From Armatimonadota bacterium (GTDB lineage Bacteria > Armatimonadota > DTGP01 > JAKQQT01), in assembly GCA_036504095.1 (NCBI GenBank), contig DASXVS010000002.1, forward strand, positions 118,184 through 182,183: DNA of 64,000 nucleotides, in the 5' to 3' direction. The notes under the pieces were generated by a model, which saw nothing but the letters and a program-made list of their open reading frames with translations, made no database searches and was not told the origin of the DNA. Within the stretch, counting starts at the first letter, position 1. Every line of letters begins with the position of its first letter. Below are positions 4,481 through 55,039 of this stretch, one piece after another. The translations under genes were made by a program, and so were the position numbers.

Positions 4481-7400
4481 ATGAAGACCGGTATGCGCTG
4501 TCTGCTCTGGTTTGCCGCGGTATTGTCCCTCTCCAGTTCGGCGTTAGCAGGTGCCCTCGAAACGGGCTTTCACTCGCCCCCTCCATCCGCCCGGCCGTGG
4601 GTCTACTGGTTCTGGCTGAACGGTAACATCACCCGGGAAGGCATCACGGCCGACCTGGAGGCGATGGAGCGCGTCGGCATCGGTGGCGTGCTGATCATGG
4701 AAGTGGACCAGGGCGCCCCCAGAGGCCCGGTCGATTTCATGGGCGCCCAATGGAGGGCATTGTTCGCCCACGCCGCATCTGAGGCGAAACGCCTCGGCCT
4801 CGAAATCAACATGAACAACGACGCGGGCTGGAACGGCAGCGGCGGCCCGTGGATCAAGCCAGAACAATCCATGCAGAAGGTGGTCTGGAGTGAAACCTCT
4901 CTCGCAGGTCCGCAGCGCTTCGAAGGGACGCTTCCCCAACCCCAGACCGTTGCCGGCTTCTACCGCGACATCGAGGTGCTCGCATTCCCGACACCCGGGC
5001 CGTACCGGATACCGGATATCCAGGTGAAGGCTGCGTATCAGGTGGGCGCGGTTGGCGCGGCGGAGGCAGCTGACCTGGCACCGGAGATGGTCATCGACAC
5101 GAAGCAGGTCACCGACATCACCTCCCGGATGGATGCGACCGGGCGAGTCAATTGGGACGTTCCTGCGGGAAATTGGACCGTCATGCGCTTCGGGCATACG
5201 AGCACCGGCGCCGTCAATGCGCCCGCCCCGGAAACCGGCCGTGGGCTTGAATGCGACAAGTTGAGCGTGGAAGGCGCCGAGGCGAATTTCGGCGGAATGA
5301 TGGCCAAACTCGTCGCGGACACCGGCTCCGCTCCCGGCAAGGCGCTGGTTGCCACGCACGTGGATAGCTGGGAGAACGGGTCGCAGAACTGGACCGCCCG
5401 CATGCGCGACGAGTTCCGGCACCGGCGCGGTTACGACCCGCTGCCGTTTCTGCCCGTGATGACCGGCCGCGTGGTCGGGAGCGCGGAGGTATCGGAACGA
5501 TTCCTATGGGATCTTCGCCGTACCATTTCCGAACTCGTCGTTCAGAACTACGCCGGACGCATCCGGGGCCTCGCCCACGCGAACGGCCTGAGATTCACCA
5601 CCGAGGCGTACGGCGGCCCGTGCGACGACCTCCCCTACGGAGGGCAGGCGGACGAACCGATGGGCGAGTTCTGGATGGGCGGAGGCTCCATCGAGACGTG
5701 CCGGGGCATGGCCTCGGCCGCGCACGTCTACGGCAAGCCCATCGTCGGGGCGGAGTCGTTCACCGCCGGCAGTGACGAGCGGTGGCTCCAACACCCCGCT
5801 TCAATCAAATCTCTCGGAGACCGCGCCTTCTGCGAGGGAATCAACCGCTTCGTCTTCCACCGTTACGCGATGCAGCCGTGGGTGGATAACCGGCGTCCCG
5901 GTATGACGATGGGCCCGTGGGGGCTTCACTACGAGCGCACACAAACGTGGTGGAACCAGTCTGCCGCGTGGCACACCTACCTCGCGCGCTGCCAGCAACT
6001 GCTGCGGCAGGGAAGATACGCGGCCGATATCTGCTACCTCCAGGCAGAGGCGCCACCGCAGGCGTTCAACGGACACAGGCCGGCCGGTTACGCCTGGGAC
6101 GAGTGCCCCGCCGAAGCCGTGCTCACACGCATGACGGTGAAGAACGGGCGCATCGTGCTGCCTGACGGGATGAGCTATCGGGTTCTGGTGCTGTCCGAGT
6201 CGCGAAACATGACGCCCGCCCTGCTGCGGAAGCTCGGCGACCTCGTGAAGGCCGGCGCAACCGTTATCGGCCCGCGTCCGCTGAAGTCGCCGAGCCTGAG
6301 CGGCTATCCGCAGTGCGATGACGAAGTGAAGCGACTGGCCGACGAAATATGGGGCGATTGCGACGGCAAAGGCGTGAAGGAGCACCGGTATGGCCTCGGG
6401 CGCGTGATATGGGGCGTCGCGCCGGAGAAGATTCTCTCTGGCTCGGGAACGGGACCGGATTTCACCGGCGGGCAGCGCCTGAACTGGATCCACCGCACTG
6501 TCGGAACCACGGAGATCTACTTCCTGGCCAACCCCCAGGCGAAGCGCGTGGCGGCAGCGTGCACGTTCCGCGTAAGCGGCAAGACGCCCGAGTTGTGGTG
6601 GCCGGAAGCTGGTCGCATCGAGCGCGCTCCGATATACCGCCTGGACAAGGGCGCTACGACCGTCCTGCTGCCGCTTGGGCCCAGCGAGTCCGTCTTCGTC
6701 GTCTTCCGGAGCGCCGCCGCGAAGAGCGACCCGGTGATGGCGGTCAAACGCGGCGGTACGACCGTGCTCTCCCTGGTGTCCGGTCCCGCGCTCCCGATCG
6801 TCGTGAAGAGAGCTTCGTACGGCGTTCTGGGTGACCCCGCCCGGACACGGGACGTCCGGGCAGAGGTTCAGCGCCTCGCTGACTCCGGCGAGCGCGAGTT
6901 TCAGGTCGCGGAAATGGCGGCCGGCGATGATCCCGCATACGGCATCGTCAAGACGCTCATCGTTGATTACACGTTAGGCGGTAAGCGGGCTACGGCCAGA
7001 GGCGTCGATCCTGAGCGCATAGACCTGGATTCATTCACGCCGGATACAGCCCCGCAGTGCGAGCTGGCCGGTTCGGGCAGCCTCGAGCGCCTCACCGTTT
7101 GGCAGCCGGGCCGATACACGGTCGTACGCGCAAGCGGCAGGGCTCAGATTCTGACCATGCCCGATGTTCCAGCTGCTTTGAGCATCGGAGGCCCATGGAC
7201 GGTCTCATTCCCGCCCGGTAACGGCGCACCGGAGAGGATTCGGCTGGAACGGTTGGCCTCTCTGTCCGACTATCCCGATCCGGGTGTGAAGTACTTCTCC
7301 GGAACGGCGGTGTGGCGCACGACAATACACGCGCCGGCCGGCGCGTTCGGCAACGGCCGCACGATGCGGCTGGAACTCGGCGACGTTCAGGTGATCGCCG

Positions 7401-16708: not shown

Positions 16709-18145
16709 ATGGCTGTCACCGATCATTCAATCCTGCCGAAAACGCCCGCCGGGGAGATGCTCGCCCTCTGGCTGGACGCCGTGAACTCCGGCGACTTCGA
16801 GACGATCCGTCGTTTCATCAGCGAAAGCCATACCGCCGCTGCGCTGGCGACTCGCAACGCCAGGCAGCGGGCGGCGGCACGCGTGCGGACGTGGACCAAC
16901 ACGCGCGGCCTGACGGCGCGGCGGATCGTCGCGTCGAAGCCGCACGCTCTGAACGCCCTGCTGTTCGGGAACCTGGCGGAGGATTGGTGGAACGTTCGCA
17001 TCGAAGTGGAGCCGGATCCGCCGCACCACGTCAAATCACTCTCGCTCTCGCCCGCGGCCGCGCCGGACGACCTGCGCGAAGGCGGCCCGTTGTCGCCGCC
17101 CGAGATTGCCGAACGACTCGACGCCTACACCGCGAAGCTCGCAGATGCCGACATTTTCTCCGGCGCCTATCTGCTTGCGCGAAACGGCGAGGTGCTCACG
17201 GCCGGGGCACGCGGCCTCGCCAGCCGCGCGTGGAAAGTCCCAAACACCGTGCAAACCCGGTTCAACCTCGGGTCGTGCAACAAGATGTTCACCTCGGTCG
17301 CGATCCTTCAGCAGATCGAATCCGGACGGATCGCTCTGGACGACCGGATCGGCGGCATTCTGCCCGACTACCCCAACGAAGACGTGGCCGCGAACGTGAC
17401 GATCCGCCATCTGCTCACGCACACCTCGGGCCTGGGCTCGTTCTTCAACCAGCAGTTCGCGGGCGCATCGCGCGCGCGATTTCGCAAGGTCGCCGATTAT
17501 ACGCCCCTCTATGAGCGCGAGCCTCTCGAGTTCCGCCCCGGCGCGCGGTTCAGCTACAGCAACTCCGGCATGATGCTTCTGGGTGTGATCCTGGAGAAAG
17601 TGACCGGCGGTGACTACTTCGAGTACATTCGCGAGCGCATCTACGGGCCGGCCGGCATGACCCGCAGCGATTCCTACGACCTCGATGCGGACGAGGCGGA
17701 CATCGCGGTCGGCTACACCAGCACGGGCGCGGACGGTGGCCACCAATCCGGACCGCGCCGCAGCAATGTCTTCACACACATCGCCAAGGGCAGCCCCGCC
17801 GGTGGAGGTTTCTCAACGGTCGAGGACATGCTGCGTTTCGACCAGGCGCTCCGGGGCAACGTCCTGCTTAAGCCGGAGACCACCGCGCTGATGCTCACGC
17901 CGCAGGCATCAACGGACTTCGATCCGTCAGTGAAGATCGGATACGGGGTCTTTCTGGAAGAGTCGGCCGGCAAGCGCATCGCGGGCCACAGCGGCGTGTT
18001 CGCGGGCGTGAACTCGCAGTTGGACATGCACCTGGACACCGGGTTCACCGCTGTCATCCTGAGCAACTACGATCCGCCCGCCGCCAAGCGCGTGGCCCAC
18101 AAGGTGAGGGAGTGGGTGGCGGGGGGAGTGATGAATGATGAGTGA
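16709..18145 (+). CDS. Serine hydrolase, beta-lactamase/transpeptidase superfamily, with an extra N-terminal domain
   Basis: S-x-x-K motif (SCNK), YSN motif (YSNSG), HSG near the C-terminus; no signal peptide seen. Confidence 0.75.
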   Translation: MAVTDHSILPKTPAGEMLALWLDAVNSGDFETIRRFISESHTAAALATRNARQRAAARVRTWTNTRGLTARRIVASKPHALNALLFGNLAEDWWNVRIEVEPDPPHHVKSLSLSPAAAPDDLREGGPLSPPEIAERLDAYTAKLADADIFSGAYLLARNGEVLTAGARGLASRAWKVPNTVQTRFNLGSCNKMFTSVAILQQIESGRIALDDRIGGILPDYPNEDVAANVTIRHLLTHTSGLGSFFNQQFAGASRARFRKVADYTPLYEREPLEFRPGARFSYSNSGMMLLGVILEKVTGGDYFEYIRERIYGPAGMTRSDSYDLDADEADIAVGYTSTGADGGHQSGPRRSNVFTHIAKGSPAGGGFSTVEDMLRFDQALRGNVLLKPETTALMLTPQASTDFDPSVKIGYGVFLEESAGKRIAGHSGVFAGVNSQLDMHLDTGFTAVILSNYDPPAAKRVAHKVREWVAGGVMNDE

Positions 18146-18185
18146 TGAATGATGAGCGATGGACGCCCGGATTCAGGGGTTCAGT
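18128..18185. repeat. Word-repeat element copy (GATGAATGATGAG tandem words followed by CCCGGATTCAGGGG)
   Basis: GTGATGAATGATGAG x2 then CGATGGACGCCCGGATTCAGGGG; overlaps the last codons of the serine hydrolase (..VMNDE stop); related copies at 48697, 51245, 54800 and inverted copies at 19165, 51411. Confidence 0.6.
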
Positions 18186-18214: not shown

Positions 18215-19138
18215 ATGAACAGAGACCCATTCTGGAAGGATCCTATGGAAGGGGAAAAGGCTGTCGTCTACTGGACGGGGACAAAGGAACCGCTGTGTGG
18301 AGAGTCGCTATGGGAGGGCAATATTGTCCGCCTGCCGGTTCCACCTGGGGATCCGTGGATCAGCATCGTGCTGGGTGGGGGCTTTATCCTGCCGGCAACG
18401 GATGGCAGTGGTACTGACACGATCAACCCGGTCGGGATCCTACACGATTTCTACAGCCGTGACGCCGAGGGGGCTCCGTTTCCGGAAAAGGTGACGGCGT
18501 GTCTGGCGGGAGAACGGAGGGTCTTCATCGGCTACCCGCATAGGACGTCCCACCTGTATGTTGACAGCGAGGACGACCTGGCTTTCGATATGGTCGCGAA
18601 CGACTGGCTGGAGATGATGGACGCGGCGGGTTTCAATGTCCGAGTCGCTGTCGGCGACGGTCCCAAAGACTACCCGTACGTGAGCGCTATCGGAACTGGA
18701 ACTCAGCTCGCCCGAACGCACTGGTTGAAAGGCCAATGCGAAGGGGACCCGCTCGTGTTGTTCGCATCGGACGGCGTGAGAACACCGTTGGAGGAGTTGA
18801 TCGCGAAGTGGACGCCCTCCGGATCCAAAGCGCTGCGGGACGAGCTCACTCAGCAGATGTACCGTGACCACCGACCCATTTGGCAACTCATCGCCGGCGC
18901 CGACCTGTTCTTCTCCTGCTGTGGGTTCGAGGGAGGTTACGAAGCAATTCTAAACGTGCGTGGCGTCCCAGTGGAGAGGATTCACGAAGTGCTCAAGGAA
19001 GTAGCCGAAAGTCTCGGCCTCCATCTGTACTATGGTGGCGAAGCGCCACAAGCCCGCGAGTCGACGCGGTGGAGCTACGTCTTCGATGACCATTACCGGC
19101 GGATGCCGATACCCAGCCATTGGGAGCAGATCGTGTGA
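18215..19138 (+). CDS. Hypothetical protein (307 aa), no recognisable domain
   Basis: Complete ORF with ribosome-binding-like GGGAGAGAAGGGGAG upstream; GC slightly lower than neighbours; bracketed by inverted word-repeat arms. Confidence 0.5.
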   Translation: MNRDPFWKDPMEGEKAVVYWTGTKEPLCGESLWEGNIVRLPVPPGDPWISIVLGGGFILPATDGSGTDTINPVGILHDFYSRDAEGAPFPEKVTACLAGERRVFIGYPHRTSHLYVDSEDDLAFDMVANDWLEMMDAAGFNVRVAVGDGPKDYPYVSAIGTGTQLARTHWLKGQCEGDPLVLFASDGVRTPLEELIAKWTPSGSKALRDELTQQMYRDHRPIWQLIAGADLFFSCCGFEGGYEAILNVRGVPVERIHEVLKEVAESLGLHLYYGGEAPQARESTRWSYVFDDHYRRMPIPSHWEQIV

Positions 19139-19164: not shown

Positions 19165-19200
19165 GCTTTCATCGCTCATCGACCATCGTTCATCGTCTTC
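19165..19200. repeat. Inverted copy of the GATGAA word repeat
   Basis: CTTTCATCGCTCATCGACCATCGTTCATCG is the reverse complement of GATGAACGATGG / GATGAGCGATGAA words; lies between convergent stops. Confidence 0.55.
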
Positions 19201-19201
19201 G

Positions 19202-19633
19202 CTACAGCGCGTACACCTCCGCACTTGGGACCACCTGCACGCCGCTGGCGGCCAGCGTGTCTACCGCCTTGTCGATGTCCTCCACACGGAAGATGACCAG
19301 GGCGTTGTCGCGGAACTTCTCCGTGAACGCGTAGAGGTATTCCACACTCACATCTGCCGAGCCGAGGGCTTCCATGATGTGTGACAGGCCGCCGGGCCGG
19401 TCCGGGACTTCCACCGCGATGACATCGGTGAGTCGCGTCACGAATCCGGCGGCCTTGAGCACCAAGACGGCGGCGGCGGGGTCGGTGACGATGAGGCGCA
19501 AAACGCCGAAATCGGACGTATCGGCCAGGCAGAGCGCCCGCATGTTGATGTGCGCCTCGCCAAGCACCTTTGTGACCGCGGCCAGGCGGCCGGGCTTGTT
19601 CTCAAGAAACACGGAGAGTTGCTGTACGCGCAT
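19202..19633 (-). CDS. ACT-domain protein (small-molecule-binding regulatory domain)
   Basis: Two ACT-like beta-alpha-beta-beta-alpha-beta halves; last gene of the iorAB-paaK operon. Confidence 0.65.
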   Translation of the reverse strand: MRVQQLSVFLENKPGRLAAVTKVLGEAHINMRALCLADTSDFGVLRLIVTDPAAAVLVLKAAGFVTRLTDVIAVEVPDRPGGLSHIMEALGSADVSVEYLYAFTEKFRDNALVIFRVEDIDKAVDTLAASGVQVVPSAEVYAL

Positions 19634-21040: not shown

Positions 21041-21120
21041 TTGGCCCTCATAGAGAATTGAGGGTTGAGAATTGAGATCTGAGGGTCCGGAGTCCGGTCT
21101 CATTTCTCCATTCTCATATC

Positions 21121-21783
21121 TCAAATCTGATGCTCCCACCCCGCGGCCAGGGCGCGTCGGTTCGACTCCAGGAACTTCGGCTTCACGGTGTCCGCCAGCG
21201 CCTGCTCCCATATTTCGCGCGGCAGGCCCAGTTCCCTGCCCAGACGTCCCAGAAGCACGACGTTCGCGGCTCGGGCGTTGCCGGCTTCGCACGCGAGGCG
21301 GTCGGCGTCCATGGCGAACACCTTCCCGCGCCGTGACACCGACTTCTCGACACCCTGCGGGTATTTCGCCGTGCCAAGGATCACCGGCATTGGCGAGATG
21401 ATCTGCGTGCTCATGATAACAGCCGCATCCGGCTTCAGCATGTGCGACCAGCGCAGCGCTTCCAGTTGCTCGAAAGCCAGTATGAAATCCGCTGTTCCCG
21501 GGTCGATCGTGGGTGCGAAAATGCGGTCGCCGATTCGCACCTGGGTCACCACGGCGCCGCCGCGCTGGGCCATGCCGTGAGTTTCGGAGAACTTCACGTC
21601 TTTGCCCGCAAGTAATGCCACGCGGGACAGAATTCGCGCCGCCAGTATCGTCCCCTGCCCGCCAACACCAACAATGAGTATTGAGGTCGGGTCCAGGGCT
21701 GAGGGCTGAGGGCTGAAGGCTGGGAGAGACGCAGGTATCGGCGCGGCGCCTGAATCTTGAATCCTGGATACTGGATCCTTCAT
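21121..21783 (-). CDS. iorB: Indolepyruvate ferredoxin oxidoreductase, beta subunit (with ~25-aa repeat-derived N-terminal extension)
   Basis: ILIVGVGGQGTILAARIL core; ATG overlaps the iorA stop in an ATGA arrangement, so the extension encoded by GGGCTGAGG words is probably translated. Confidence 0.8.
   Translation of the reverse strand: MKDPVSRIQDSGAAPIPASLPAFSPQPSALDPTSILIVGVGGQGTILAARILSRVALLAGKDVKFSETHGMAQRGGAVVTQVRIGDRIFAPTIDPGTADFILAFEQLEALRWSHMLKPDAAVIMSTQIISPMPVILGTAKYPQGVEKSVSRRGKVFAMDADRLACEAGNARAANVVLLGRLGRELGLPREIWEQALADTVKPKFLESNRRALAAGWEHQI
21695..21723. repeat. GGGCTGAGG word repeat inside the iorB 5' end
   Basis: GGGCTGAGGGCTGAGGGCTGAAGGCTGGG; encodes AFSPQPSALDP on the minus strand; the same words occur at 29281 and 60800..60951. 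Confidence 0.55.
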
Positions 21784-23516
21784 AGCTCCAGCGCTCCCGT
21801 CTGGCAAACGGTGACACACAGGCCGCACGAGGTGCACATCCCTTCGTTGATCACTGGCCTCTCATCATCGCTCCAGGAAATGGCCGGGCAGCCGGGATCC
21901 ATGCACATCTGGCAACTGGCGCACGCTTCGTCCACCACTTTGACGGCCCTGCCCTCGAGGGTCGTGAGAAGCACGCACGGCCGCCGCGCGATAATGACGG
22001 ACACCTCGGGCGCCTGCGTCTCTTCCTTGAGGGCTTGCTCAAGCCCCTCGATATCCAACGCGTCCAGCACGCGGATCCGGCGCACACCGAGGCCCTTGCA
22101 GATATCCTCGAGCACGGCCTGCGGCGCCGGACGCCCCTTGGCATCCTTTCCTGTTGCCGGGTGGTCCTGATGACCCGTCATCGCGGTGGTCGCGTTGTCC
22201 AGGATCAGAACCGTCCCGTGGCTACCGTTATAGACCATGTCCAACAGGCCGGTCATCCCGCTGTGAAGGAACGTTGAATCGCCGATCACTGCGACGGTCT
22301 TCTTCGCGTTCGCGGGATCCGCCTTTTCCATGCCCAGCGCGAGGCCGATGCTGGCCCCCATGTCCATGAACATGTCCAGCGCGTTGAGCGGCGGCAGCGC
22401 GGCGAGCGTGTAACAGCCGATATCGCCGGTTACGATCAGCCTCAATCGATTCAGCGTGAGAAACACGCCGCGGTGCGGACAGCCCGGGCACAACACCGGA
22501 GGGCGTCCCGCGGCCTCTTCCGGCGCGAACGGCGCGGGCGGCGGCGGCGGTTCAGCCATCGCTTTGGCGATCGCCGTCTTCACCATCGTTGTGGAAAGCT
22601 CCCCGATGCGCGGCAGGCCGAGTGGCACGATTTTTACGCCGGCCAGTCGAACATTTTCCGCGAGGAACGGCTCCAACTCCTCGACCACGACCACCTTCTC
22701 AACGCCCTCCGCGAACTCGCGGACCAGCTTCTCCGGTAGCGGGTAGGAGCACCCCAATTTCAGCACGCTGGCATCCGGGCGAGCCTCCTTCACGTATTGA
22801 TAGGAGATCCCGGAGGTGATGATGCCGAGTTTGCGATCGCCCCATTCGATCCGGTTGATCGGCGTTGTTTCGGACCAGGCGGCCATTCGGTCGAACCGCG
22901 CCAGCACATCCGGCTGCCGGAGTTTGGCGTGCCCCGGGATCATCACGTATTTACGGACGTCCTTCTTATAGGGCCGCAGTTCGCAGGGTGTGCGCTCGCC
23001 GATCTCGACGAGGCTCTTCGAGTGCGAAATGCGCATAGTGGTCCTGAGGATCACTACCGTGTCCAGCTGCTCGGACATTTCAAGCGCCGCGCGCACCAAA
23101 TCCTTGCATTCCTGGCTGTCGGATGGCTCTAGCACAGGAATTCGCGCGAAGCGGCCATAGAAACGGTTGTCCTGCTCGTTCTGGGACGAGTGGATCCCCG
23201 GGTCGTCCGCGCTGACGAGCACGATGCCGCCGTTAACGCCGGTGTAAGCGAGGGTGAGAAGCGGGTCGGCAGCCACGTTCACGCCGACGTGCTTCATAGC
23301 CGCCAGCGAACGGGCGCCGGCCATGGACCCGCCGATGGCGACCTCCAACGCAACCTTCTCGTTAGGCGACCATTGCGCGGCGATATCGTCGTACCGCGCG
23401 ATGTTCTCCAGAATTTCAGTGCTGGGCGTGCCGGGATACGCCGCCGCCACCCGGACCCCATATTCATAAGCGCCCCGCGCAACGGCCTCGTTGCCCGAGA
23501 GCAGTTCCTTGCTCAA
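21780..23516 (-). CDS. iorA: Indolepyruvate ferredoxin oxidoreductase, alpha subunit
   Basis: 578 aa; thiamine-diphosphate-type segments (GDIGCYTL, GDSTFLHSG) and C-terminal ferredoxin-type Cys clusters (CASCQMC, CTSCGLC). Confidence 0.85.
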   Translation of the reverse strand: MSKELLSGNEAVARGAYEYGVRVAAAYPGTPSTEILENIARYDDIAAQWSPNEKVALEVAIGGSMAGARSLAAMKHVGVNVAADPLLTLAYTGVNGGIVLVSADDPGIHSSQNEQDNRFYGRFARIPVLEPSDSQECKDLVRAALEMSEQLDTVVILRTTMRISHSKSLVEIGERTPCELRPYKKDVRKYVMIPGHAKLRQPDVLARFDRMAAWSETTPINRIEWGDRKLGIITSGISYQYVKEARPDASVLKLGCSYPLPEKLVREFAEGVEKVVVVEELEPFLAENVRLAGVKIVPLGLPRIGELSTTMVKTAIAKAMAEPPPPPAPFAPEEAAGRPPVLCPGCPHRGVFLTLNRLRLIVTGDIGCYTLAALPPLNALDMFMDMGASIGLALGMEKADPANAKKTVAVIGDSTFLHSGMTGLLDMVYNGSHGTVLILDNATTAMTGHQDHPATGKDAKGRPAPQAVLEDICKGLGVRRIRVLDALDIEGLEQALKEETQAPEVSVIIARRPCVLLTTLEGRAVKVVDEACASCQMCMDPGCPAISWSDDERPVINEGMCTSCGLCVTVCQTGALEL

Positions 23517-25779: not shown

Positions 25780-27834
25780 ATGCAACCTATCGTGAACCTG
25801 TGGAACGACTCGGAGGCCGCCGCGCTCGGCGACGTCGATATCCTCGCCTATGTGTCCCGTCTGCTCGGCGCGGATCCCAGCCTCGTCGTCTGGGGTGGAG
25901 GCAACACATCCATCAAGACCAGTGAGACGGATTTCCGAGGCCGCCACGTCGCGGTGCTCCGCGTGAAAGGCAGCGGCAGCGACCTCAAGGCCGCCAAGCC
26001 CGCCGATTTCCCTGCGGTTTTCATGGACGACCTGCTGCCGCTGCTCAACCGCGGCGCGATGAACGACGAGGAGATGGTCTCGTGGGTGAACCACTCCCTC
26101 CTCGAACCGAACTCGCCGCGCCCGAGCATTGAGACGCTCCTCCACGCCTTCGTGCCCGCGAAATGCGTTCTGCACAGCCACGCTGACGCCATCGTGGCGC
26201 TCACCAACAACGAACGCGGCGAAGAGGTTATCCGCGAGGTATTCGGCGAAGACCTTGGCGTCATCCCGTACATTCGGCCCGGCTTCCGGATGTCTCAGAT
26301 GGTCGGCGAGGCAGCCCGCAAAAACCCGGCGCTGAAAGGCGTCGTCCTGATGAACCACGGGCTGGTCACATGGCATGACGACCCGCGCGAAGCCTATGCG
26401 CTGCACGTGGAAATGGCGAACCGCGCCGTTGCCGGCATCCGGCATCCTGCATTCAGCATTCAGACTCCAGAGTCCGTCCTGGATGCTGAATGCAGGATGC
26501 AGAATGCTGCGTCTCTCGCGCCGACGCTGCGCGGCCTTCTGGGCGCGGACAAGCGCGTGGTGATGCGGTACGACGACTCCGAAGATGTCCTTCGGTTCGT
26601 GAACTGGGACCGCGCGCCGGAAGCGACCCGGAAGGGCGCCGCCACGCCGGACCACATCCTCAGCAGCAAGCGCCGTCCGATGTGGGTGATCGCGGACAAC
26701 CCGGCCGACATCGAAAGCCTCCGCACCGCCGCGCGGGAAGGCCTGGAGGACTGGCACCGCGATTACCGCCAGTGGTACGAAACGTTCAACTCCGGCGAGG
26801 AAATGCTGCCGCCGTACCCCCGCGTCATACTCGTGAAGGGATTGGGCATGTTCACCGCGTGGGACAACTCGGCCAGGGCCGTTATCCCGGCGGATATCTA
26901 CCACCATACCATCTCCATCATCGAAGCGGCGGAAAGCATCGCCCCGTACCGAAGCCAGTCCGACGCCGACGCCTTCGCCTCGGAATACTGGCCGCTGGAA
27001 CTCTACAAGCTCACGCTCGCGCCGCCGGAAAAGGAACTCGCCCGGCGCGTGGCGCTGGTGACGGGCGCCGCCGGCGCGATCGGCGCGGGCATCGCGCGCA
27101 AGTTCGCCGCCGCGGGCGCACACGTAATCTGCGCCGATCTCGACCTGCCGAAAGCGCCATCGCTGGCTTCTGACATCACCGCCGCGAACAAGGCGAACCC
27201 CGCGTTGGCCGTCGAAATGGACGTCACGAGCGAGCCGTCGGTCCAGGCAGCGTTCCGGCAGATCGCTCTGGCGTACGGCGGCATCGACATTCTCGTTTCC
27301 AACGCCGGCATCGCGCATAGCTGCCCCATTGACTGTCTGGAACTCGCCGACTGGCAGCGAAGCCTCGATGTGAACGCCACCGGCCATTTCCTGGTAGCGC
27401 GCGAAGCGCTGCGGATGATGAAGCAGCAGGGGACCGGTGGAAGCCTTGTTTTCATCGCGACCAAGAATGTCACCTCGCCCGGAAAGGACTTCGCGGCCTA
27501 CAGCGCGGCGAAATCCGCCGAGGCGCAATTGGCGAAGGTTCTGGCGCTGGAGGCGGGCCCGTTCGGCATCCGCAGCAATATGGTTAATCCGGATGCGGTA
27601 TTCGAGGGCAGCGGATTATGGTCGGACGAGGTGCGGGAGCAGCGTGCGAAGGCGCAGGGTATCCGGCCGGAGGAAATCGAGGAGTTCTATCGGAAGCGCA
27701 ACATCCTGCAGGCGAACGTAACGGCCGAGGATGTGGCGGAAGCGGCGTTGTTCCTGGCATCGGACCGCAGCGCCAAGACGACGGGCGCGATGATCCCGGT
27801 TGACGGCGGGATCAAGGACGCGTTTCCTCGGTAG
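25780..27834 (+). CDS. Bifunctional rhamnulose-1-phosphate aldolase / short-chain dehydrogenase
   Basis: N-terminal class II aldolase-like domain and C-terminal SDR domain (TGAAGAIG Rossmann motif, YSAAK catalytic motif); 684 aa. Confidence 0.8.
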   Translation: MQPIVNLWNDSEAAALGDVDILAYVSRLLGADPSLVVWGGGNTSIKTSETDFRGRHVAVLRVKGSGSDLKAAKPADFPAVFMDDLLPLLNRGAMNDEEMVSWVNHSLLEPNSPRPSIETLLHAFVPAKCVLHSHADAIVALTNNERGEEVIREVFGEDLGVIPYIRPGFRMSQMVGEAARKNPALKGVVLMNHGLVTWHDDPREAYALHVEMANRAVAGIRHPAFSIQTPESVLDAECRMQNAASLAPTLRGLLGADKRVVMRYDDSEDVLRFVNWDRAPEATRKGAATPDHILSSKRRPMWVIADNPADIESLRTAAREGLEDWHRDYRQWYETFNSGEEMLPPYPRVILVKGLGMFTAWDNSARAVIPADIYHHTISIIEAAESIAPYRSQSDADAFASEYWPLELYKLTLAPPEKELARRVALVTGAAGAIGAGIARKFAAAGAHVICADLDLPKAPSLASDITAANKANPALAVEMDVTSEPSVQAAFRQIALAYGGIDILVSNAGIAHSCPIDCLELADWQRSLDVNATGHFLVAREALRMMKQQGTGGSLVFIATKNVTSPGKDFAAYSAAKSAEAQLAKVLALEAGPFGIRSNMVNPDAVFEGSGLWSDEVREQRAKAQGIRPEEIEEFYRKRNILQANVTAEDVAEAALFLASDRSAKTTGAMIPVDGGIKDAFPR
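26440..26512. repeat. Imperfect palindrome embedded in the aldolase/SDR coding sequence
   Basis: GCATCCTGCATTCAG ... CTGAATGCAGGATGC perfect 15-bp inverted repeat with flanking CATTCAG/CTGAATG words, coding for ..GIRHPAFSIQTPESVLDAECRMQNAAS.. Confidence 0.5.
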
Positions 27835-29181: not shown

Positions 29182-29288
29182 CGCATAGAGGGCGAGATAA
29201 GGGGAAGGCGCAACGACGCGCTTTCCCCTCCCACTTTGGTGCCCGCCACCGCACAAATCCACGTAGCTCTGACGCCTGCTCCCGTCCC

Positions 29289-30152
29289 TCAGCCTTTACC
29301 CCTCAGCCCTCGAATCACGTCCAGGTTCCGCCTGTCGTCGTCCGGGTTGTTCTTGGGGGTCTCGAGGATGAACGGAACATGCGCGAGGCGTGGGTCGTTC
29401 ACAAGCGCGCGGAACGCATCGGGGCCGATCTGCCCCTCCCCGATGTCCTGATGAACGTCAGATTTCCCACCCAACGCCTTGCGGTTGTCGTTGGCGTGGA
29501 TGCAAAGCAGGCGGTCGAGGCCCACCAGCGCATCGAACTCGTCGATCATCGCCGTTGTGCCTTCGGCGCTGGAGATGTCGTATCCCGTGGCCCATACGTG
29601 GGCGGTGTCGATACAGATGGCAACGCGGTCCGCCACGGGCCCGCACAACTCGAGAACGCTCTCCAGTTCCTCGAAGCGCGAACCAACCAGTTTCCCCGAT
29701 CCATTGGTCGTCTCCAGGAGCACGGTCGTGCCGCTCCCGTCCTCGGAAAGCACCTCGACCAGCGCGGCCGCCACGCGCCGGATGCCGGCGTCCATCCCTG
29801 CCCCGAGGTGGCTGCCGATATGGCTGTTCACGTACTCGCTGCCGCTGCGCTCGGCCTGCGCCAGTGCGTCGCGTAGCATCTGCTTTGAGCGGCCCCAGTT
29901 GAAATCGTCAGGCGATGCGAGGTTGATGAGGTAGGGCGTGTGCAGCACGCACGGCTTCATGTCCAGGCGTTCTCGCTCGGCGCAGAAAAAGGCACAGTCG
30001 GCCTCCTTCCACGCGGTCCCCTTCCAGGCGCCGGGGTTGCCACTGAAGATCTGGAGGCAGTTGCAGGTGGCGTCCTCGGCCCATTTCAATGAGCCGCGGA
30101 GGCCGCCCGACAGCGGCGCGTGGACTCCGAAGCGTTCAGGTAGGGCGCTCAA
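29289..30152 (-). CDS. nfo: Endonuclease IV (AP endonuclease)
   Basis: TIM-barrel Nfo motifs (HAPLSGGL, CLQIFSGNP, CIDTAHVWATGYD, CIHANDN); proposed TTG start at 30152 is in frame (codon 145 of the track ORF) and abuts the upstream stop. Confidence 0.75.
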   Translation of the reverse strand: MSALPERFGVHAPLSGGLRGSLKWAEDATCNCLQIFSGNPGAWKGTAWKEADCAFFCAERERLDMKPCVLHTPYLINLASPDDFNWGRSKQMLRDALAQAERSGSEYVNSHIGSHLGAGMDAGIRRVAAALVEVLSEDGSGTTVLLETTNGSGKLVGSRFEELESVLELCGPVADRVAICIDTAHVWATGYDISSAEGTTAMIDEFDALVGLDRLLCIHANDNRKALGGKSDVHQDIGEGQIGPDAFRALVNDPRLAHVPFILETPKNNPDDDRRNLDVIRGLRGKG

Positions 30153-32051: not shown

Positions 32052-32786
32052 TCACGGGAGGCCCGGCGCCGCCACGATGTTCGCCCGCACTTCGTTCCAG
32101 GGGCGGGCGGCCGCGTGACCGTCGCAGTAGACCGATACCGTGAGGCCGTCCCACTCCATGTAGGCGGGACGTCCCTGCGGCGGCGAATGCCACGGCAGCA
32201 CGTCCGTGATCAGCACCACGCGCGTCGGCCGCGCAACTACCGACGTCGGACGGGCGGCCAGGGCAGAGTTCTCGGGCTTGGGATAGGGGTTCTCGTCCAC
32301 CACCCGCGCGTACATATCGCGATAGAAATAACTGGCGCCGCCGTCTTTCCAGAACGGGCGGGCGGGGCCGGTCATCCAGTAATCGCTGAACTTGAGATTC
32401 AGGCCGGTGTCCGAGGGGCAGCGCCATATCTCGCGGGCCGCGCCGTACGGAGAGACGGCCTCGATAATGCCGGGCGTGCCTTCGATGAACGGTCCGAATG
32501 ACGCGTACTGCGGCGTGTTCCATTCGTTCCACGCGGCGGGGAAGGTGTCATTCCAGTCGTCCGCGTACGCGCGGATAGCGACGCCTATCTGTTGCAGGTT
32601 TGAGAGGCAGACGGCACGATCTGCTTTCGTACGTGAACGCGATAGAACAGGCAGCGCGATGCCCGCCAGAATGGCGATGATCCCGCTCACCACCAGCATC
32701 TCCAGCAGTGTGAAGCCGGCCCGGGCAGTAGGCAGGAGGCAGGAGACAAAAGAGGGTGTCCCGCGCACCGAACCCCGATTCCTCAT
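32052..32786 (-). CDS. Prepilin-type N-terminal cleavage/methylation-domain protein with DUF1559-like C-terminal region
   Basis: GFTLLEMLVVSGIIAILAGIALPV prepilin signal; CLSNLQQIGVAIRAYADD and a C-terminal YCDGH motif typical of the H-X9-DG family. Confidence 0.75.
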   Translation of the reverse strand: MRNRGSVRGTPSFVSCLLPTARAGFTLLEMLVVSGIIAILAGIALPVLSRSRTKADRAVCLSNLQQIGVAIRAYADDWNDTFPAAWNEWNTPQYASFGPFIEGTPGIIEAVSPYGAAREIWRCPSDTGLNLKFSDYWMTGPARPFWKDGGASYFYRDMYARVVDENPYPKPENSALAARPTSVVARPTRVVLITDVLPWHSPPQGRPAYMEWDGLTVSVYCDGHAAARPWNEVRANIVAAPGLP

Positions 32787-32794
32787 ATACAATC

Positions 32795-32860
32795 TGCAGT
32801 ACCTCCGCGCTACCTCCACGTTCCTCTGCGTCCTCCGCGTCCTCTGCGCTGAACTCCTAC
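32795..32860. repeat. CCTCCGCG / GCGTCCTC word-repeat element
   Basis: ACCTCCGCGCTACCTCCACGTTCCTCTGCGTCCTCCGCGTCCTCTGCG; reverse-complement words of the GCGGAGG family seen at 48697 and 51245. Confidence 0.5.
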
Positions 32861-35006: not shown

Positions 35007-35098
35007 AGTTCCGGGTTTCGAGTTCCGGGTTCCGAGTTCCGGGTTCCGAGTTCCGGGTTCCGGGTTCAGGGTTCAGGGTTTCGGGTTCCGGATTCCGA
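35005..35098. repeat. Tandem heptamer/14-mer array (GAGTTCC GGGTTCC)n, about 13 heptamer units
   Basis: GAGTTCCGGGTTTCGAGTTCCGGGTTCCGAGTTCCGGGTTCC... directly after the htpX stop. Confidence 0.7.
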
Positions 35099-35128
35099 TC
35101 ACACGGTACGACCGGCGTCCCGCCGGTC

Positions 35129-35164
35129 ATTCACCCGGTGGGCCCGCAATCAATCTCCCACCGG
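35129..35164. repeat. Perfect 11-bp stem hairpin inside the structured intergenic element
   Basis: CACCCGGTGGG (14-nt loop) CCCACCGGGTG. Confidence 0.5.
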
Positions 35165-35270
35165 GTGCGCTTCGCGCTTGTTGTCGACGAGTTTCTTTGC
35201 TCCGCTCAGAATGACAAAGGCCAGGACCCTCCGCACCTTTCCCCGTGTTAGGCCTATATTGAGACGTAAG

Positions 35271-35300
35271 GCTCGGAACCCGGAACTCGAAACTCGAAAC
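35271..35300. repeat. Inverted partial copy of the 35005 heptamer array
   Basis: CGGAACCCGGAACTCGAAACTCGAAACCC is the reverse complement of the array start (17 nt identical). Confidence 0.6.
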
Positions 35301-35306
35301 CCAAAC

Positions 35307-47300: not shown

Positions 47301-47530
47301 CTGCGTCCTCCTGTTTACAGAATGACCCGCGTGACAGCTTGAAAGTTCGGGGGAAGGAGTCACAAGGGAGGTGGCGGCATCCGGGATGCACCGCGGGGGA
47401 TTTCCTGCCGCGAAGCCGCTGAGGAAACCGAGGGACCGGGAGGCTTCTCACCCCTCCGGTTGAATCCCCTCATGACTCTGTGGACCTCTGTGCTCCTTCG
47501 TGCCCTCGGTGGTGAACCCGGGCCCACCGC

Positions 47531-48007
47531 TCATCGTTCTTCGTTCAGCGTTTGCGTGGGCAGGGGGTTCGTCATCCCCTCGGGAACGAGCTCATTGGCG
47601 AACTCGATGACCTTGTCGTCGTTCAATTCGGCGTCATCGTACCCGTTCCACTTCTCCAGGCTCCAGATCTCGGCCACGTTGCCGTTGCCGATAACCACCA
47701 CGTCGCCCTGGATTTCCGCCTTGTCCCGAAGGTATTTCGGAATCAGCACCCGTCCCGCCTCATCCGGCGTCACTTCGGTGGCGGCGCCCATATAGAACCG
47801 CCGCAAAGCGAGGGCCTTCTTATCGGTGTCGGCGATCCGGCCCAGTTTGTCGAGGATCGTCTGCCACTGAGCCGGCGGGTAGAGCGCGATGCAGCCGCTG
47901 AACCCGCGCGTCAGGACGTAGGGCGCCTCGAACGCCTCCCGTAATTTCACGGGAAGAACGAGGCGACCCTTGCTGTCCAGGTTGTGGGTTGTGGAGCCGG
48001 AATACAT
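47531..48007 (-). CDS. mraZ: Transcriptional regulator MraZ
   Basis: LDSKGRLVLPVKLR and a second half VVVIGNGNVAEIWSLEKW; duplicated MraZ/SpoVT-AbrB-like halves; 158 aa. Confidence 0.8.
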   Translation of the reverse strand: MYSGSTTHNLDSKGRLVLPVKLREAFEAPYVLTRGFSGCIALYPPAQWQTILDKLGRIADTDKKALALRRFYMGAATEVTPDEAGRVLIPKYLRDKAEIQGDVVVIGNGNVAEIWSLEKWNGYDDAELNDDKVIEFANELVPEGMTNPLPTQTLNEER

Positions 48008-48609: not shown

Positions 48610-48696
48610 ATTATGACATGTCCCGTCATGGCGCAGAGGGATCAGGAATGGATTTTCACGCCGGCCGGGTGTTGATAAGTGGCATCAGGCCGGTAC

Positions 48697-51297: not shown

Positions 51298-51360
51298 GCA
51301 ATCCCTGACCCAGCGCTGAGCCGTGGGGCCAGCCCCACGTCCGCGGGCGGAAATGGCACT

Positions 51361-51483: not shown

Positions 51484-53703
51484 CTAGAATCCTGGCGGCA
51501 AACTCGACGCCGTGCTGCTCTGCAAATCCCCGCCGCCGATGTTCAAGTTCTCGCCGAACATGCCGGTGGTGAACGGGTCGGCCATCGGGAACGCCTTGAT
51601 CCGTATCAGCACGCGGATCCCCGTCTCGTTGCGCCAGCCTTTGTCGTTGATCAGCGCGACGGACGCCTCGGTGCAACCCATATCCTTCGCGACGAGGAAG
51701 TGGCGGTATCGCTGTCCGCTGTCCGTGCCGGCGAGAGCCCGCACGCGCCAGTCGCGGCCGACGGGCGTGTCGAGGCTGCCCAGCAGCCGTCCGAACCGTC
51801 CTGTCGCCGGTATGTAGCGGCCTTCGCCGTCGAAGTGGAGCCCGCCCAGCCGCAGCCGAAGGCCGCTGTTCACGTAGCGCACTTTTGACGTCTCGCCCGG
51901 CGCCTTGCCGTTCACGTTGATCGCCGCGTTGGTCACCCATCGTATCCCGGGAGTGGGCTGCACGATCGCCATCGCCAGGAGGTCGCGCCAGGGCGTGAGG
52001 TGGTTGCGGAAGTCATACGCCGTGCCGGCGCGGAGCTCCAGGGCGCGCATATCGGCCAGTTTCACTGTGCCGCTGAGGCTCTCGTACGCGAACGGACGGT
52101 CGAACTGGAACGGCGTGTAGCCCTTCGGCTTCGAGACGCTGTAGCTCAGCGTGAAGTCCGATTTGCGACCGAGAGGCTGCGTGACGCCCAGGTTGCCGGT
52201 CAGCGTGTAGAGCGCTGCGTCACTTGTGTAGATCGCCTGCCGAAATCCGCCGCCCACGTTCAACGTCAGCGATCCGGCCTTCCACCGCCGGTTCGGCGCG
52301 GTTGCCTCGAACAACTGCCGCCCCCCGCGATGCCCGTTCGCCTCGAACGAGCCGTCCGCCAGCGTGAGCGCAACCGGCGCCGATTTGGACGCGGTCAGCC
52401 CGAGCCTATACGCGTCCGATTTGAGCGTGAGTTCCGGCAGCCGCTGGACCGGCAGATACAGCCCGCCCGTTTCGCCGCCTCCGTGGACCGCTATATGGTT
52501 GGCCGCCAGTTCCACATCCACCGCGTTGAAGCCCTGCGCCACGCTGATCTTGTGGTCTACTTCGCTCGTGGCCGGGATGCCCGCCGATGACTGCCGCGTG
52601 CTGTCGACGCCGAATTGGAGGGTCCCCTTGGGGTCGAATTTGTACGCCTGCGCGAATCCTGCCGTCACGCCCTGGTATTTGCCGCCGCCCGACTTGCTGC
52701 CGTTGTAGCGGAGCGACAAACGGGTGTCCGATGCGCCCACCGCGCGTGCCATCGAGATCCCGGCGCTGCGCGACGTGCTGCCGGGCACATACAGGTAGGA
52801 GTTCTTCCGAAGTTCGCCTTCCAGCTGCGTGTCGAAGCCAAGGATCTTGCGGTTGTCGCGCAGATTGGCGCTCAGGTTGCGCCCCGCCTGCCCCGTCACC
52901 GAATACAACGACACCTCCCCCTTGCCGTTGGGCGCATAGTCGTGCGTAACTCCGAGGCCGAGCCCCTGCTTCTGCATTACGTCCACATGCACCGCGCCCG
53001 TCTGCCCGCCCCGGGCATAGTTCAGCAGCGTCTTAAGGAAGAAGCCTTCCTCCGTGCTCTGCCCCACCACCGGCACGACCGGCGCCTGCCCGCCCTGCTG
53101 CTTGATAGGAAAAACCAGCGTCGGCACGGTGGCCAGCCTCCGTCCGAACAGCAGCGTGGTCGCGTGCCGTGCGATGACCTTCCGGTCCGGCAGGATGGTC
53201 ACCTCTCGGGCGACGACCTCGTACTGCGGCCGCACCGGATCGCACGAGGTGATGTGCGCGTTGTAGAGCGTGATCTCGCGCCTGGATCCCTTAATGCTCT
53301 CCGCCATCACGTGGAATGGTGAAAGCGCGCCCACGGGGGTCACATCCGTGGTCGACTTGCTCATCGACCACTCCCGCGTCTTGATGTTGAACTCCAGGAA
53401 GCTGTCCGCGCCGCCGCTGACGGTCTCTTTGCCGGTGTCCAGCGCCACGTTTCCGCGCAGGATGGCCGTCGACGTCGTCTCGTCGAAATCGCCCGCGTCC
53501 CCGGTCAAAACGTACTGCTTGTGCGTGATGCGAACGTGGCCCGCCGCGACCCAGTGCTTCGCGGACTCCTCGTAGTGGGTGATATCGGCCGAAATTGTGG
53601 CGTTCGGCGCGGGCGCGAGCGGCAGGCCGGGCGCGGTCTGCCCCAGTGCGCGCGGGGCGCAGAGGAGGGCAATCGCAGCGACGGCGGTTATTCCTCGCGC
53701 CAT
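51484..53703 (-). CDS. lptD: LPS-assembly protein LptD-like (OstA N-terminal domain plus outer-membrane beta-barrel)
   Basis: Signal peptide MARGITAVAAIALLCAPRALGQ; OstA-like N-terminal segment; long beta-rich C-terminal region; start by codon arithmetic. Confidence 0.65.
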   Translation of the reverse strand: MARGITAVAAIALLCAPRALGQTAPGLPLAPAPNATISADITHYEESAKHWVAAGHVRITHKQYVLTGDAGDFDETTSTAILRGNVALDTGKETVSGGADSFLEFNIKTREWSMSKSTTDVTPVGALSPFHVMAESIKGSRREITLYNAHITSCDPVRPQYEVVAREVTILPDRKVIARHATTLLFGRRLATVPTLVFPIKQQGGQAPVVPVVGQSTEEGFFLKTLLNYARGGQTGAVHVDVMQKQGLGLGVTHDYAPNGKGEVSLYSVTGQAGRNLSANLRDNRKILGFDTQLEGELRKNSYLYVPGSTSRSAGISMARAVGASDTRLSLRYNGSKSGGGKYQGVTAGFAQAYKFDPKGTLQFGVDSTRQSSAGIPATSEVDHKISVAQGFNAVDVELAANHIAVHGGGETGGLYLPVQRLPELTLKSDAYRLGLTASKSAPVALTLADGSFEANGHRGGRQLFEATAPNRRWKAGSLTLNVGGGFRQAIYTSDAALYTLTGNLGVTQPLGRKSDFTLSYSVSKPKGYTPFQFDRPFAYESLSGTVKLADMRALELRAGTAYDFRNHLTPWRDLLAMAIVQPTPGIRWVTNAAINVNGKAPGETSKVRYVNSGLRLRLGGLHFDGEGRYIPATGRFGRLLGSLDTPVGRDWRVRALAGTDSGQRYRHFLVAKDMGCTEASVALINDKGWRNETGIRVLIRIKAFPMADPFTTGMFGENLNIGGGDLQSSTASSLPPGF

Positions 53704-54782
53704 ATCAGCCACGCTCCCACGCCGGTGAAGACCGCGTTCGGCAGCCACGCCGCCAGCACAGGCGGCAGCACCGAACCGCCCATTTCCTTGAAGAACAGGT
53801 ATCCCTGCACGTAGAGGAAGAAGAGCACCAGCGCGATCAGGATGCCCGTGAAGCCGCCACCGCGGCCGAAATGCACCGCCAGCGGCAGACTGATGATCGT
53901 CAGCACCACGCACGCGAACGGCAGCGCGAATTTCAGGTAGTAATCCACCTTCCATTCCCGCGTGTTCGGGTTGCCGGTCCTCACCCCCTCCGCGATCGCC
54001 CGCGACAACTGCATCGCGTTCATCTCGTCCGTCGTCTGCGCCATCGTCCACAGCGTGCCCACCGTCCGGTCAACGTCGAACGTGAACTTGGGGAACGCGA
54101 CCTCGTTGGTGGTGAACCCGCGCGCATCCATCTCGCGCCGCACGCCCCGGTACAGAGTCCATTTGGTGCCGCTGGCGGTGGCCGTCTCGGCGGTGTACAG
54201 GACCGGATACGTGCCGGACCGCATCTCGTAGACCATCACGCGCGTCAGCAGAAACGCCACCTCGTTCGGGTTGGCGGAATCCCGCGTCTTCTGCATGTCG
54301 CCGATGTAGAACTTGAACTGCCCCGTGCCGAAGAAGACGTCGCTGCGGATGGAGATCGGTCGCACCTTGAAGAACAGGCGGTACTCCGCCATCGACGCGC
54401 GGTGGTTCATCATCGGGGCGATGGTCTCATTGATGTAGAAGCTCGCCACGCTGATCAGCGCGGCGACGACCATCATGGGGACGAGGATGCGCTTCAACGG
54501 CATCCCGCTCAGGCGCATGACGGTGATCTCGTTCTCGCGCGCCATCCGGTTCACGCCCAGCGACACGCCGAACAGCACCGCCACCGGCAGCGCGTATACG
54601 ATGAACTGCGGCATCCGGTAGGCGATGACCTTCGCTACTTGCGAAAGCGCCGCGCGGTCGTTCATCACCAGCCGGAACAGGTTCATCAGCACCGCGCTGA
54701 CCTGCATCAGCAGGAAGCCGAACACCCCAACGAGGAACGGCGCCAGCAGCTCGCGCGCCAGATATCGGTCGGCCGTCTTCAC
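53688..54782 (-). CDS. LPS export ABC permease LptF/LptG family (YjgP/YjgQ)
   Basis: DRYLARELLAPFLVGVFGFLLM N-terminus and permease layout; proposed GTG start at codon 28 because the upstream 27 codons are encoded by a GATGAA word repeat. Confidence 0.7.
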   Translation of the reverse strand: MKTADRYLARELLAPFLVGVFGFLLMQVSAVLMNLFRLVMNDRAALSQVAKVIAYRMPQFIVYALPVAVLFGVSLGVNRMARENEITVMRLSGMPLKRILVPMMVVAALISVASFYINETIAPMMNHRASMAEYRLFFKVRPISIRSDVFFGTGQFKFYIGDMQKTRDSANPNEVAFLLTRVMVYEMRSGTYPVLYTAETATASGTKWTLYRGVRREMDARGFTTNEVAFPKFTFDVDRTVGTLWTMAQTTDEMNAMQLSRAIAEGVRTGNPNTREWKVDYYLKFALPFACVVLTIISLPLAVHFGRGGGFTGILIALVLFFLYVQGYLFFKEMGGSVLPPVLAAWLPNAVFTGVGAWLIWREE

Positions 54783-54783
54783 G

Positions 54784-54850
54784 CTATGAGTATAGGGAAC
54801 GAAGCGATGAATGATGAACGATGGGCGATGAATAGCGGAGGCGGATTGAG
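54784..54850. repeat. Diverged copy of the GATGAA/CGGAGG word-repeat element
   Basis: GAACGAAGCGATGAATGATGAACGATGGGCGATGAATAGCGGAGGCGGATTGAGC. Confidence 0.55.
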
Positions 54851-55039
54851 CTTGGAGGGACACAGAGAAAGCTGGTGATGGGCGTCCGGACAGGAGTGGA
54901 AGACCGAAGCGCTACCTTCCGTCCGCTCTCTTCCAAGGAATCACCGTTCCTGACGGGACCGGTCCTTCACGGTGAAAGTATGGTCCAGCCCTGCCGGACG
55001 CCCGGGATTGGCGTCCAGCAGGACACACCACTTGGACCG

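Follow-up and report, generated by a model that had tools for sequence, protein, structure and literature searches.

Heptamer repeat arrays at gene junctions of an uncultured Armatimonadota genome and their part in the predicted ends of IorB and other conserved proteins

The gene iorB, predicted to encode the beta subunit of an indolepyruvate:ferredoxin oxidoreductase, lies in a 64 kb stretch of DNA (hereafter the window) from a metagenome-assembled genome (MAG) of an uncultured Armatimonadota bacterium with a G+C content of about 64%. Between its start codon and its conserved core the reading frame runs through short tandem repeats, which raises the question of whether a conserved enzyme carries a head translated from simple repeats, and of what decides whether such repeats end up inside or outside the proteins next to them. 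A first-pass annotation of the window had proposed that repeat elements insert at gene boundaries and add or replace terminal residues, with iorB, a serine hydrolase gene, nfo and lptF/G as examples. Three of these four examples hold, with the ends of IorB, the hydrolase and the nfo product differing from those of their homologs, whereas lptF/G fails.

The window proteins agree in every residue with those of a 218-kb contig of an Armatimonadota MAG (NCBI HEY34115xx/HEY34116xx). The gene iorB is part of a minus-strand operon comprising iorA (23516-21780), iorB (21783-21121), a PaaK-type phenylacetate-CoA ligase gene (21040-19727) and an ACT-domain gene. The start codon of iorB overlaps the stop codon of iorA in an ATGA (ATG 21783-21781, TGA 21782-21780), as previously read. 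IorB has the N-terminal GxGGQG strand and the position directly after iorA that define a POR beta subunit; its gamma-type POR domain (PF01558) covers residues 41-216 (Pfam E 1.6e-38), and V38-G44 are invariant in the homolog alignment. From ATG 21783 the frame is open to the ILIVGVGGQG core, and no further in-frame ATG, GTG or TTG was found between the two. The residues ahead of the core number 34, compared to 5-9 in 13 full-length aligned homologs (52-69% identity), and the head is missing from all aligned homologs at ≤69% identity. Two arrays of unrelated 7-nt units, here called array 1 and array 2 and separated by 26 nt of non-repeat sequence, jointly code for about 20 of the 34 residues, and the predicted head peptides include IQDSGAAPIPASLPAFSPQPSALDPTSILIVGVGGQGTILAAR and DPVSR. 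All three sense-strand frames are open in both arrays, compared to none on the antisense strand of array 2. The earlier proposal that GGGCTGAGG-type repeats encode the first ~25 codons needs correcting, as this repeat accounts only for residues 21-30, and residues 3-12 derive from the unrelated array.

The junction differs between relatives. In L005, whose IorB falls into the same 90%-identity cluster, the ATGA overlap is followed by GGATTCA x4 and GTTCATC x4; in L001 (83% identity) a GTG lies over the iorA TGA (GTGA) and is followed by AGCATTC x4 and a CCTCGGC-type unit x4. L005 has 34 residues before the core, as in the window although of different sequence, and L001 has 28. A stop-free in-frame path to the core is kept in all three genomes despite different array content and length, and the spacing between a GGGAG motif, which we regard as a putative ribosome-binding site, and the start codon is identical in the three. 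The outgroups L003 and L150 show a plain 8-nt iorA/iorB overlap without arrays. Metagenome contigs scanned with IorB yielded relatives at 45-57% identity only, none of them informative on the junction; the relatives compared here were obtained through a protein search and through cluster and contig look-ups. The alignments thus demonstrate the anatomy of the junction, its lineage specificity and the conservation of the frame in three lineages, and the 28-residue head is, on sequence evidence, a genuine, fast-changing and repeat-coded feature of this lineage. In an AlphaFold2 model built with the homolog alignment, residues 1-32 have predicted local distance difference test (pLDDT) values of 49-57 and no secondary structure, with nearly all the rest above 90; the head is probably disordered. 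At the RNA level, structure in the 5′ array region of iorB was not above that of shuffled sequences (z +0.49).

The identical length of 34 pre-core residues in the window and L005, with different sequences, could be taken to mean that the in-frame arrays are under selection, either as phase-variation switches, given that each unit change in an in-frame heptamer tract would shift the frame, or as linkers and tails that are flexible and functional. In L001, however, the count is 28 and not 34, the head sequence is not conserved, the arrays are short (~4 units) and degenerate and thus poor substrates for slippage, and the affected genes are housekeeping or metabolic genes and not surface antigens. 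We consider selection on the arrays highly improbable.

A different alternative is that the arrays form an untranslated junction spacer and that translation of IorB begins farther downstream, at a non-canonical codon (CTG 21694, or ATA/ATT by the core), with no extension at all. In the alignment, CTG 21694-21692 falls on the ATG of shorter homologs, codon scoring favors dropping the repeat-coded region, and L005 has an in-frame TTG within ISILIV. However, the window, L005 and L001 have no near-cognate start in common, and no such codon is preceded by a Shine-Dalgarno motif, whereas all three keep a stop-overlapping ATG or GTG, GGGAG at -10 and a stop-free frame despite their different arrays. 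A downstream start is accordingly given little credence here.

At the 3′ ends of genes, arrays were found to supply the last residues and the stop codon. The serine hydrolase ends with ..REWVAGGVMNDE directly before its stop, as compared to the L003 ortholog, which ends 7 residues earlier with ..REWLT; the repeat-encoded ..GGVMNDE end had been recognized before and is borne out, GAGTGAT x5 encoding both the tail and the TGA. Likewise, the ..GLRGKG end of the nfo product was correctly assigned to the repeat, its TGA lying inside AGGGCTG-type units. In the window the protein closes with ..DVIRGLRGKG; its counterpart in the relative L006, which shares the 90%-identity cluster, closes with ..DVIRGYQR, with just one GCTGAGGG word at this end. 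On the sense strand, the hydrolase array (18126..18161) and the nfo array (29280..29310) both lack an open frame. In both the window and L001, the first unit of the downstream array supplies the TGA of iorB itself, and the IorB residues after ..AAGW differ in every relative. The array pair between iorB and paaK (21041-21120) folds at -32.5 kcal/mol (z -4.7); L001 has an array pair at the same position, and L150 has no spacer, only an ATGA overlap. The TGA of a beta-helix gene (60955-60953) is in the same way the first unit of the array at 60795..60955. The C-terminal tails diverge from their orthologs exactly where the array starts. Alignment of the termini with orthologs, a check proposed along with the earlier claims, found the hydrolase and nfo tails to be lineage-specific, as was the IorB head, and an array-supplied TGA closes both tails. 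In L005, a GC-rich palindrome (860-880) occupies the iorB-paaK spacer in place of the array hairpin.

Taken across the window, the outcome of an array follows its strand: a stop-rich strand caps the open reading frame (ORF) and a stop-free strand is read through. In arrays capping 3′ ends, 0-1 of the sense frames are open because TGA is present in every unit, compared to three open sense frames in the stop-free translated arrays and two in the second arm of a hairpin within a RhaD-like gene (see below). It follows from this strand rule that tails are limited to about 7 residues, whereas heads and linkers can be long.

The explanation we favor, with a probability of roughly 0.75, joins these points. 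Many heptameric simple-sequence arrays occupy short gene spacers, singly or as hairpin-forming inverted pairs, and change fast, probably via in-place slippage and recombination. Purine-rich strands (GATGAAT, GGGCTGA, TTGAGAA), with a TGA per unit, close all three frames within ~7 codons, and an ORF meeting such a strand ends with a few repeat-coded residues, as in the hydrolase, nfo, the 3′ end of iorB and the beta-helix gene; the complementary strands are without stops and allow read-through. Translational coupling (ATGA; a GGGAG lies 10 nt upstream) would pin the start of iorB to the iorA stop, and two stop-free arrays lying between this start and the GxGGQG core would for that reason be translated as a disordered, non-conserved 28-residue head. 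The head would stay in frame for want of a usable start other than the coupled one, and would be tolerated because it is placed ahead of the first beta-strand. The extension is probably neutral, and we infer that the arrays grow in place and do not transpose.

Several points weigh against this explanation. The start of IorB translation at ATG 21783 is a predicted one, deduced from the nucleotide sequence. JGI calls an IorB of 166 amino acids, a form without the GxGGQG motif, and the starts of array-bearing genes differ between callers. All sequences compared are metagenome assemblies, in which repeats are error-prone; the proteins of the NCBI and JGI assemblies of the window genome are identical. 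Identical unit families recur at several loci of the window, and (GGGCTGA)3 is found in >120 stretches of genome sequence from many phyla, in several as inverted pairs; local origin alone is therefore insufficient. Finally, array 2 of L005 belongs to a different family than that of the window though the protein cores share a 90%-identity cluster, so that replacement is needed and not slippage only.

The example that fails is lptF/G, for which the first 27 codons of the ORF (54783..54863) had been described as a repeat. The 81-nt ORF extension upstream of the gene does exist, but the repeat is confined to 54806-54832, within the 5′ untranslated region (UTR) of a gene starting at GTG 54782. NCBI, ENA and JGI all carry the 364-residue LptF/G, and a 391-residue form is absent from them. 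In L151, an in-frame stop lies 23 codons upstream of the start, with no ATG, GTG or TTG in between, and the 13 nt preceding the GTG are identical in the window and L151, with the array farther upstream differing. A repeat-coded LptF/G N-terminus was rejected as an artefact of ORF extension in view of the 364-residue gene calls, the in-frame stop of L151 and the start of the LptG profile.

This case lends some substance to the idea that all terminal extensions are spurious, produced by maximal ORFs or by repeats that were misassembled, since the 27 codons are merely an upstream ORF extension, and callers also disagree on the starts of iorB and of a prepilin-type gene. For iorB, however, there is no alternative start that retains the essential GxGGQG strand, and the frame is kept in three independent assemblies; the stops of the hydrolase gene and nfo lie unambiguously within arrays. 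As a general explanation, artefact is thus quite unlikely. As a separate observation, the region 54000-58000 has a G+C content of 0.59 compared to ~0.64 elsewhere, with weak codon scores for the ORFs at 55040-57375, and may be a recently acquired segment beside lptF/G.

Table 1 Genes, arrays and related features of the window, with positions counted from its first nucleotide
Feature	Coordinates	Strand	Details
iorA (indolepyruvate:ferredoxin oxidoreductase alpha)	21780..23516	-	Pfam POR_N, TPP_enzyme_C, Fer4; translation; TGA 21782-21780
iorB CDS, 220 aa (NCBI HEY3411566.1)	21121..21783	-	start ATG 21783-21781
GGGAG, Shine-Dalgarno-like motif	21794..21798	-	10 nt upstream of iorB start, inside iorA codons T-G-A
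array 1	21749..21776	-	sense ATCCAGT ATCCAGG ATTCAAG ATTCAGG; IorB residues 3-12 (DPVSRIQDSG)
array 2	21695..21722	-	sense CAGCCTT CAGCCCT x3; plus strand AGGGCTG x4; IorB residues 21-30 (PAFSPQPSAL)
inverted array pair, whole iorB-paaK spacer	21041..21123	-	Tandem Repeats Finder (TRF) rows 21053, 21098; first unit holds iorB TGA
serine hydrolase (beta-lactamase fold), 478 aa	16709..18145	+	PF00144 residues 142-466; same length in NCBI
array GAGTGAT/GAATGAT x5	18126..18161	+	first 20 nt give last 6 hydrolase residues (..GVMNDE) and TGA 18143-18145
nfo (deoxyribonuclease IV), 287 aa, TTG start per NCBI	29289..30152	-	NCBIfam TIGR00587; exact look-up
AGGGCTG-type array	29280..29310	-	sense AGGGCTG AGGGGTA AAGGCTG AGGGACG; nfo tail GLRGKG and TGA 29291-29289
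GAGGGCT + CCCTCAG array stem-loop between convergent genes	60795..60955	.	fold -102 kcal/mol, z -7.3 (60800-60949)
lptF/G permease, 364 aa, GTG start 54782	53688..54782	-	residue 4 matched by position 2 of the LptG profile
GATGAAT-family array (sense TTCATCG...)	54806..54832	-	lptF/G 5′ UTR, non-coding
inverted pair GGCATCC/AGCATTC ... CTGAATGC/AGGATGC	26432..26507	+	inside RhaD-like aldolase/SDR gene 25780-27834; linker AGIRHPAFSIQTPESVLDAECRMQNA
array CTCCTGC x3 (sense)	32724..32745	-	part of leader (..VSCLLPTA..) of prepilin-type protein 32052-32768
inverted pair	34020-34091		fold z -4.8

Translated arrays are not confined to gene ends. The first-pass annotation had placed the repeats at gene boundaries, which is where most arrays do lie, but translated arrays are also found in an internal linker and in a leader peptide. 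The gene at 25780-27834 encodes a bifunctional rhamnulose-1-phosphate aldolase/short-chain dehydrogenase/reductase (SDR), and an in-frame hairpin (26432-26507), the arms of which agree at 26/29 positions and which folds at -50.3 kcal/mol (z -6.5), falls into its linker. A PDB search with the protein places the end of the aldolase domain near residue 222, immediately ahead of the hairpin. The linker is hypervariable in all homologs and repeat-coded in the relatives L026-L029, by other arrays or by a GC-rich palindrome and always in frame. A net insertion was considered and rejected for this site; the total length fits the family profile and the linker varies everywhere, which points to linker turnover instead. 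The GC-rich palindrome, of GGTCGGGCCTCCGTGCCCGAC type, encodes ..VGRASVPD.. in the linker of L027-L029 and is duplicated in L028, and the palindrome in the iorB-paaK spacer of L005 resembles this type.

The prepilin-type protein was assigned different starts: the 238-residue NCBI form includes the array, and the 215-residue JGI form begins 23 residues later and loses GFTLLE. The pseudopilin leader is unusually long, at 17 residues. Two further in-frame arrays were found in L001, where (AGGAGAC)x4 (1758-1786) makes up codons 4-12 of a KpsF-like gene with an 8-nt translationally coupled start, and (GGATTCA)x4 (5244-5274) lies inside a GH38 mannosidase (..EDSGFGIQDSG..). Coupled starts directly followed by arrays thus number two, iorB in the window and the KpsF-like gene in L001. 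That arrays are a systematic source of new protein ends and linkers, seeding or landing preferentially at TGA stops and ATGA/GTGA junctions, and that gain or loss of units could switch the iorB frame, is a doubtful extension of our explanation.

The window was scanned for tandem arrays with TRF, which gave many rows of period 7, and a period scan of our own (periods 5-12), with shuffled sequence for comparison. The latter returned 19 period-7 arrays, with 1-10 for each of the other periods, as compared to 1.7 period-7 arrays on average and 5 at most in the shuffles. The heptamer words are real and non-random in the window: GGGCTGAGG occurs 7 times (0.9 expected) and GATGAATGA 5 times (0.36 expected), and both are pieces of 7-nt tandem arrays. 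The units stand head to tail in three copies or more, e.g. x5 at 18126-18161, x4 at 21695-21722 and x13 at 35008-35097. No single unit dominates, since at least six families are present within 64 kb (GATGAAT, GGGCTGA, GGATTCA/GCATTCA, GTTCCGG, GGGTCTA and GAGAATT). In the intergenic map, most arrays fill short spacers and abut the adjacent stop or start codon, and several start at, or include, the stop codon of the neighboring gene. Many arrays are inverted pairs which fold much better than shuffles. The RNA of the hydrolase 3′ array does not fold better than shuffles (z +0.25). A search of the whole window against Rfam gave no family at the gathering threshold, and the arrays and hairpins do not correspond to a described RNA family. 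A role as canonical intrinsic terminators was rejected, as terminator-like sites are equally numerous in shuffles and no array hairpin coincides with one. A repeat of two units at the 5′ end of mraZ (47980-47994) was dropped as a chance match within the conserved MraZ N-terminus.

Around half of the unit families have a TGA on one strand, and the TGA of a gene is the exact starting point of several arrays; by a rough estimate, ~15% of random heptamers at the base composition of the window would hold a TGA. The arrays may have been seeded from stop-codon contexts, or arrays with stops in all frames may have been selected.

How the arrays arise is a separate matter. Array length and sequence differ among close relatives at conserved sites, namely the iorB junction, the RhaD-like linker and the lptF/G 5′ UTR. 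The arrays might be carried by a mobile element, similar to transposable elements of the miniature inverted-repeat type (MITEs), repetitive extragenic palindromic (REP) sequences or Rickettsia palindromic elements (RPEs), that transposes preferentially into gene boundaries. In agreement with this, the same site is filled, empty or replaced in close relatives, the iorB-paaK spacer being taken up by array hairpins in the window and L001, by a GC-rich palindrome in L005 and by nothing in L150; unit families are shared by several loci and many phyla, and the RhaD-like hairpin resembles RPEs. The repeat search, on the other hand, yielded families at array level only (D2, D6 and D12); a dispersed consensus of greater length than the arrays, MITE-like or other, was not found. 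Neither terminal inverted repeats nor target duplications were seen, though pairs of empty and filled sites were not searched for genome-wide. No gene for a REP-associated tyrosine transposase (RAYT) was seen and no transposase adjoins the arrays examined, though transposase genes were not searched for genome-wide. Moreover, from relative to relative the units change continuously in sequence and in copy number, and the occurrence of many unit families with one common period points to length-dependent slippage. Transposition is hence unlikely, and the earlier wording that repeat elements "insert" was not sustained; slippage and turnover of simple-sequence arrays in situ fit the data at least as well as insertion.

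Arrays of this kind have precedents. In the report on the TAACTGA heptamers of Beggiatoaceae (MacGregor 2015, PMC4679880), forward copies stop all three frames and overlap stop codons by ≤18 nt, reverse copies appear in the protein sequence close to either terminus, away from conserved domains, and repeats are listed from marine Beggiatoaceae, Cyanobacteria and Bacteroidetes. Both systems consist of intergenic 7-nt arrays abutting genes and follow the same strand rule (PMC4679880). The TAACTGA system has one dominant unit, compared to at least six families in the window, and repeats located mostly just upstream of start codons with no predicted fold, compared to the many inverted pairs with strong hairpins found here (PMC4679880). 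The phylum, Armatimonadota, also differs from the hosts of the TAACTGA system.

Rehm et al. (2015) described GGGAATC in Xanthomonas and GGGGA(C/T)T in Nostoc as over-represented, mostly intergenic heptamers (PMC4692102). Most GGGAATC-type copies lie ≤50 bp from a stop codon, overlaps included, convergent inverted pairs occur, and the repeats vary in length and sequence between close Xanthomonas species at conserved positions (PMC4692102). In that paper, polymerase slippage is cited as an idea for the period of 7, and several families of short tandemly repeated repetitive (STRR) sequences are cited for Calothrix (PMC4692102). The window arrays share with the GGGAATC-type and cyanobacterial STRR repeats the period-7 excess, the location between genes and at stop codons, the inverted pairs and the variation from relative to relative, and the strand rule agrees with the GGGAATC repeats of Xanthomonas. 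The GGGAATC-type repeats were studied as G-quadruplex formers and constitute one G-rich family, whereas the families of the window are diverse with G-runs only in some (GGGCTGA, GGGTCTA); in number of families the window is closer to the Calothrix STRR families than to one-unit systems. Translation of repeats into conserved enzymes, as seen in the window, lies outside the subject of that paper (PMC4692102).

REP sequences and bacterial interspersed mosaic elements (BIMEs) resemble the window arrays in that hairpins are packed into short spacers at gene 3′ ends and between convergent genes. They consist of a single palindrome of 20-40 bp, however, whereas the stems in the window are tandem heptamers with periodic mismatches, without a T-tract, and no RAYT gene was seen in the window. 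RPEs are in-frame selfish DNA in protein-coding genes, 100-150 bp in length and with a family consensus. The RhaD-like hairpin is similar to these in being a palindrome with a 29-bp stem, in frame in a conserved enzyme at a variable and probably surface-exposed site, with the gene intact, and RPEs appear to be its nearest analog. In contrast to RPEs, the window holds no consensus beyond the 7-nt words, and the iorB arrays are not palindromic.

Translation and capping by other heptamers have thus been published already, and the mechanism is not new. What the window adds is range, extending a phenomenon known from Beggiatoaceae, Cyanobacteria and Xanthomonas to Armatimonadota, with several unit families. 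For protein evolution, it offers a clean natural case in which simple repeats from non-coding DNA have become disordered heads, tails and linkers of conserved enzymes, with a simple strand rule that predicts which outcome an array gives. For annotation, gene starts and ends beside heptamer arrays are unreliable in repeat-rich, high-GC MAGs; NCBI and JGI disagree on iorB (220 vs 166 amino acids) and the prepilin-type gene (238 vs 215), and maximal ORFs may create false extensions, as for lptF/G.

Some further observations concern arrays elsewhere in the window. Two GATGAAT-family arrays of opposite orientation (18126-18161 and 19169-19203) bracket a hypothetical ORF of 307 amino acids (18215-19138), which had no match in NCBIfam; the outgroup L003 has other genes at this position, and the arrangement could represent a cassette with inverted arrays as its borders. 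A repeat class of period 9, made up of CCTCCGCGT and CGCGGAGGA words, is found between genes at 32802-32850, 47480-47530, 48690-48760, 51270-51300 and 51400-51460, and in places adjoins GATGAAT arrays as well as a CCGGATTCA motif. At 35007-35306, GTTCCGG x13, which is the longest array, and an inverted partner of CGGAACC type enclose about 175 nt with GC-rich palindromes, the arrays and palindromes together occupying the entire spacer between two same-strand genes.

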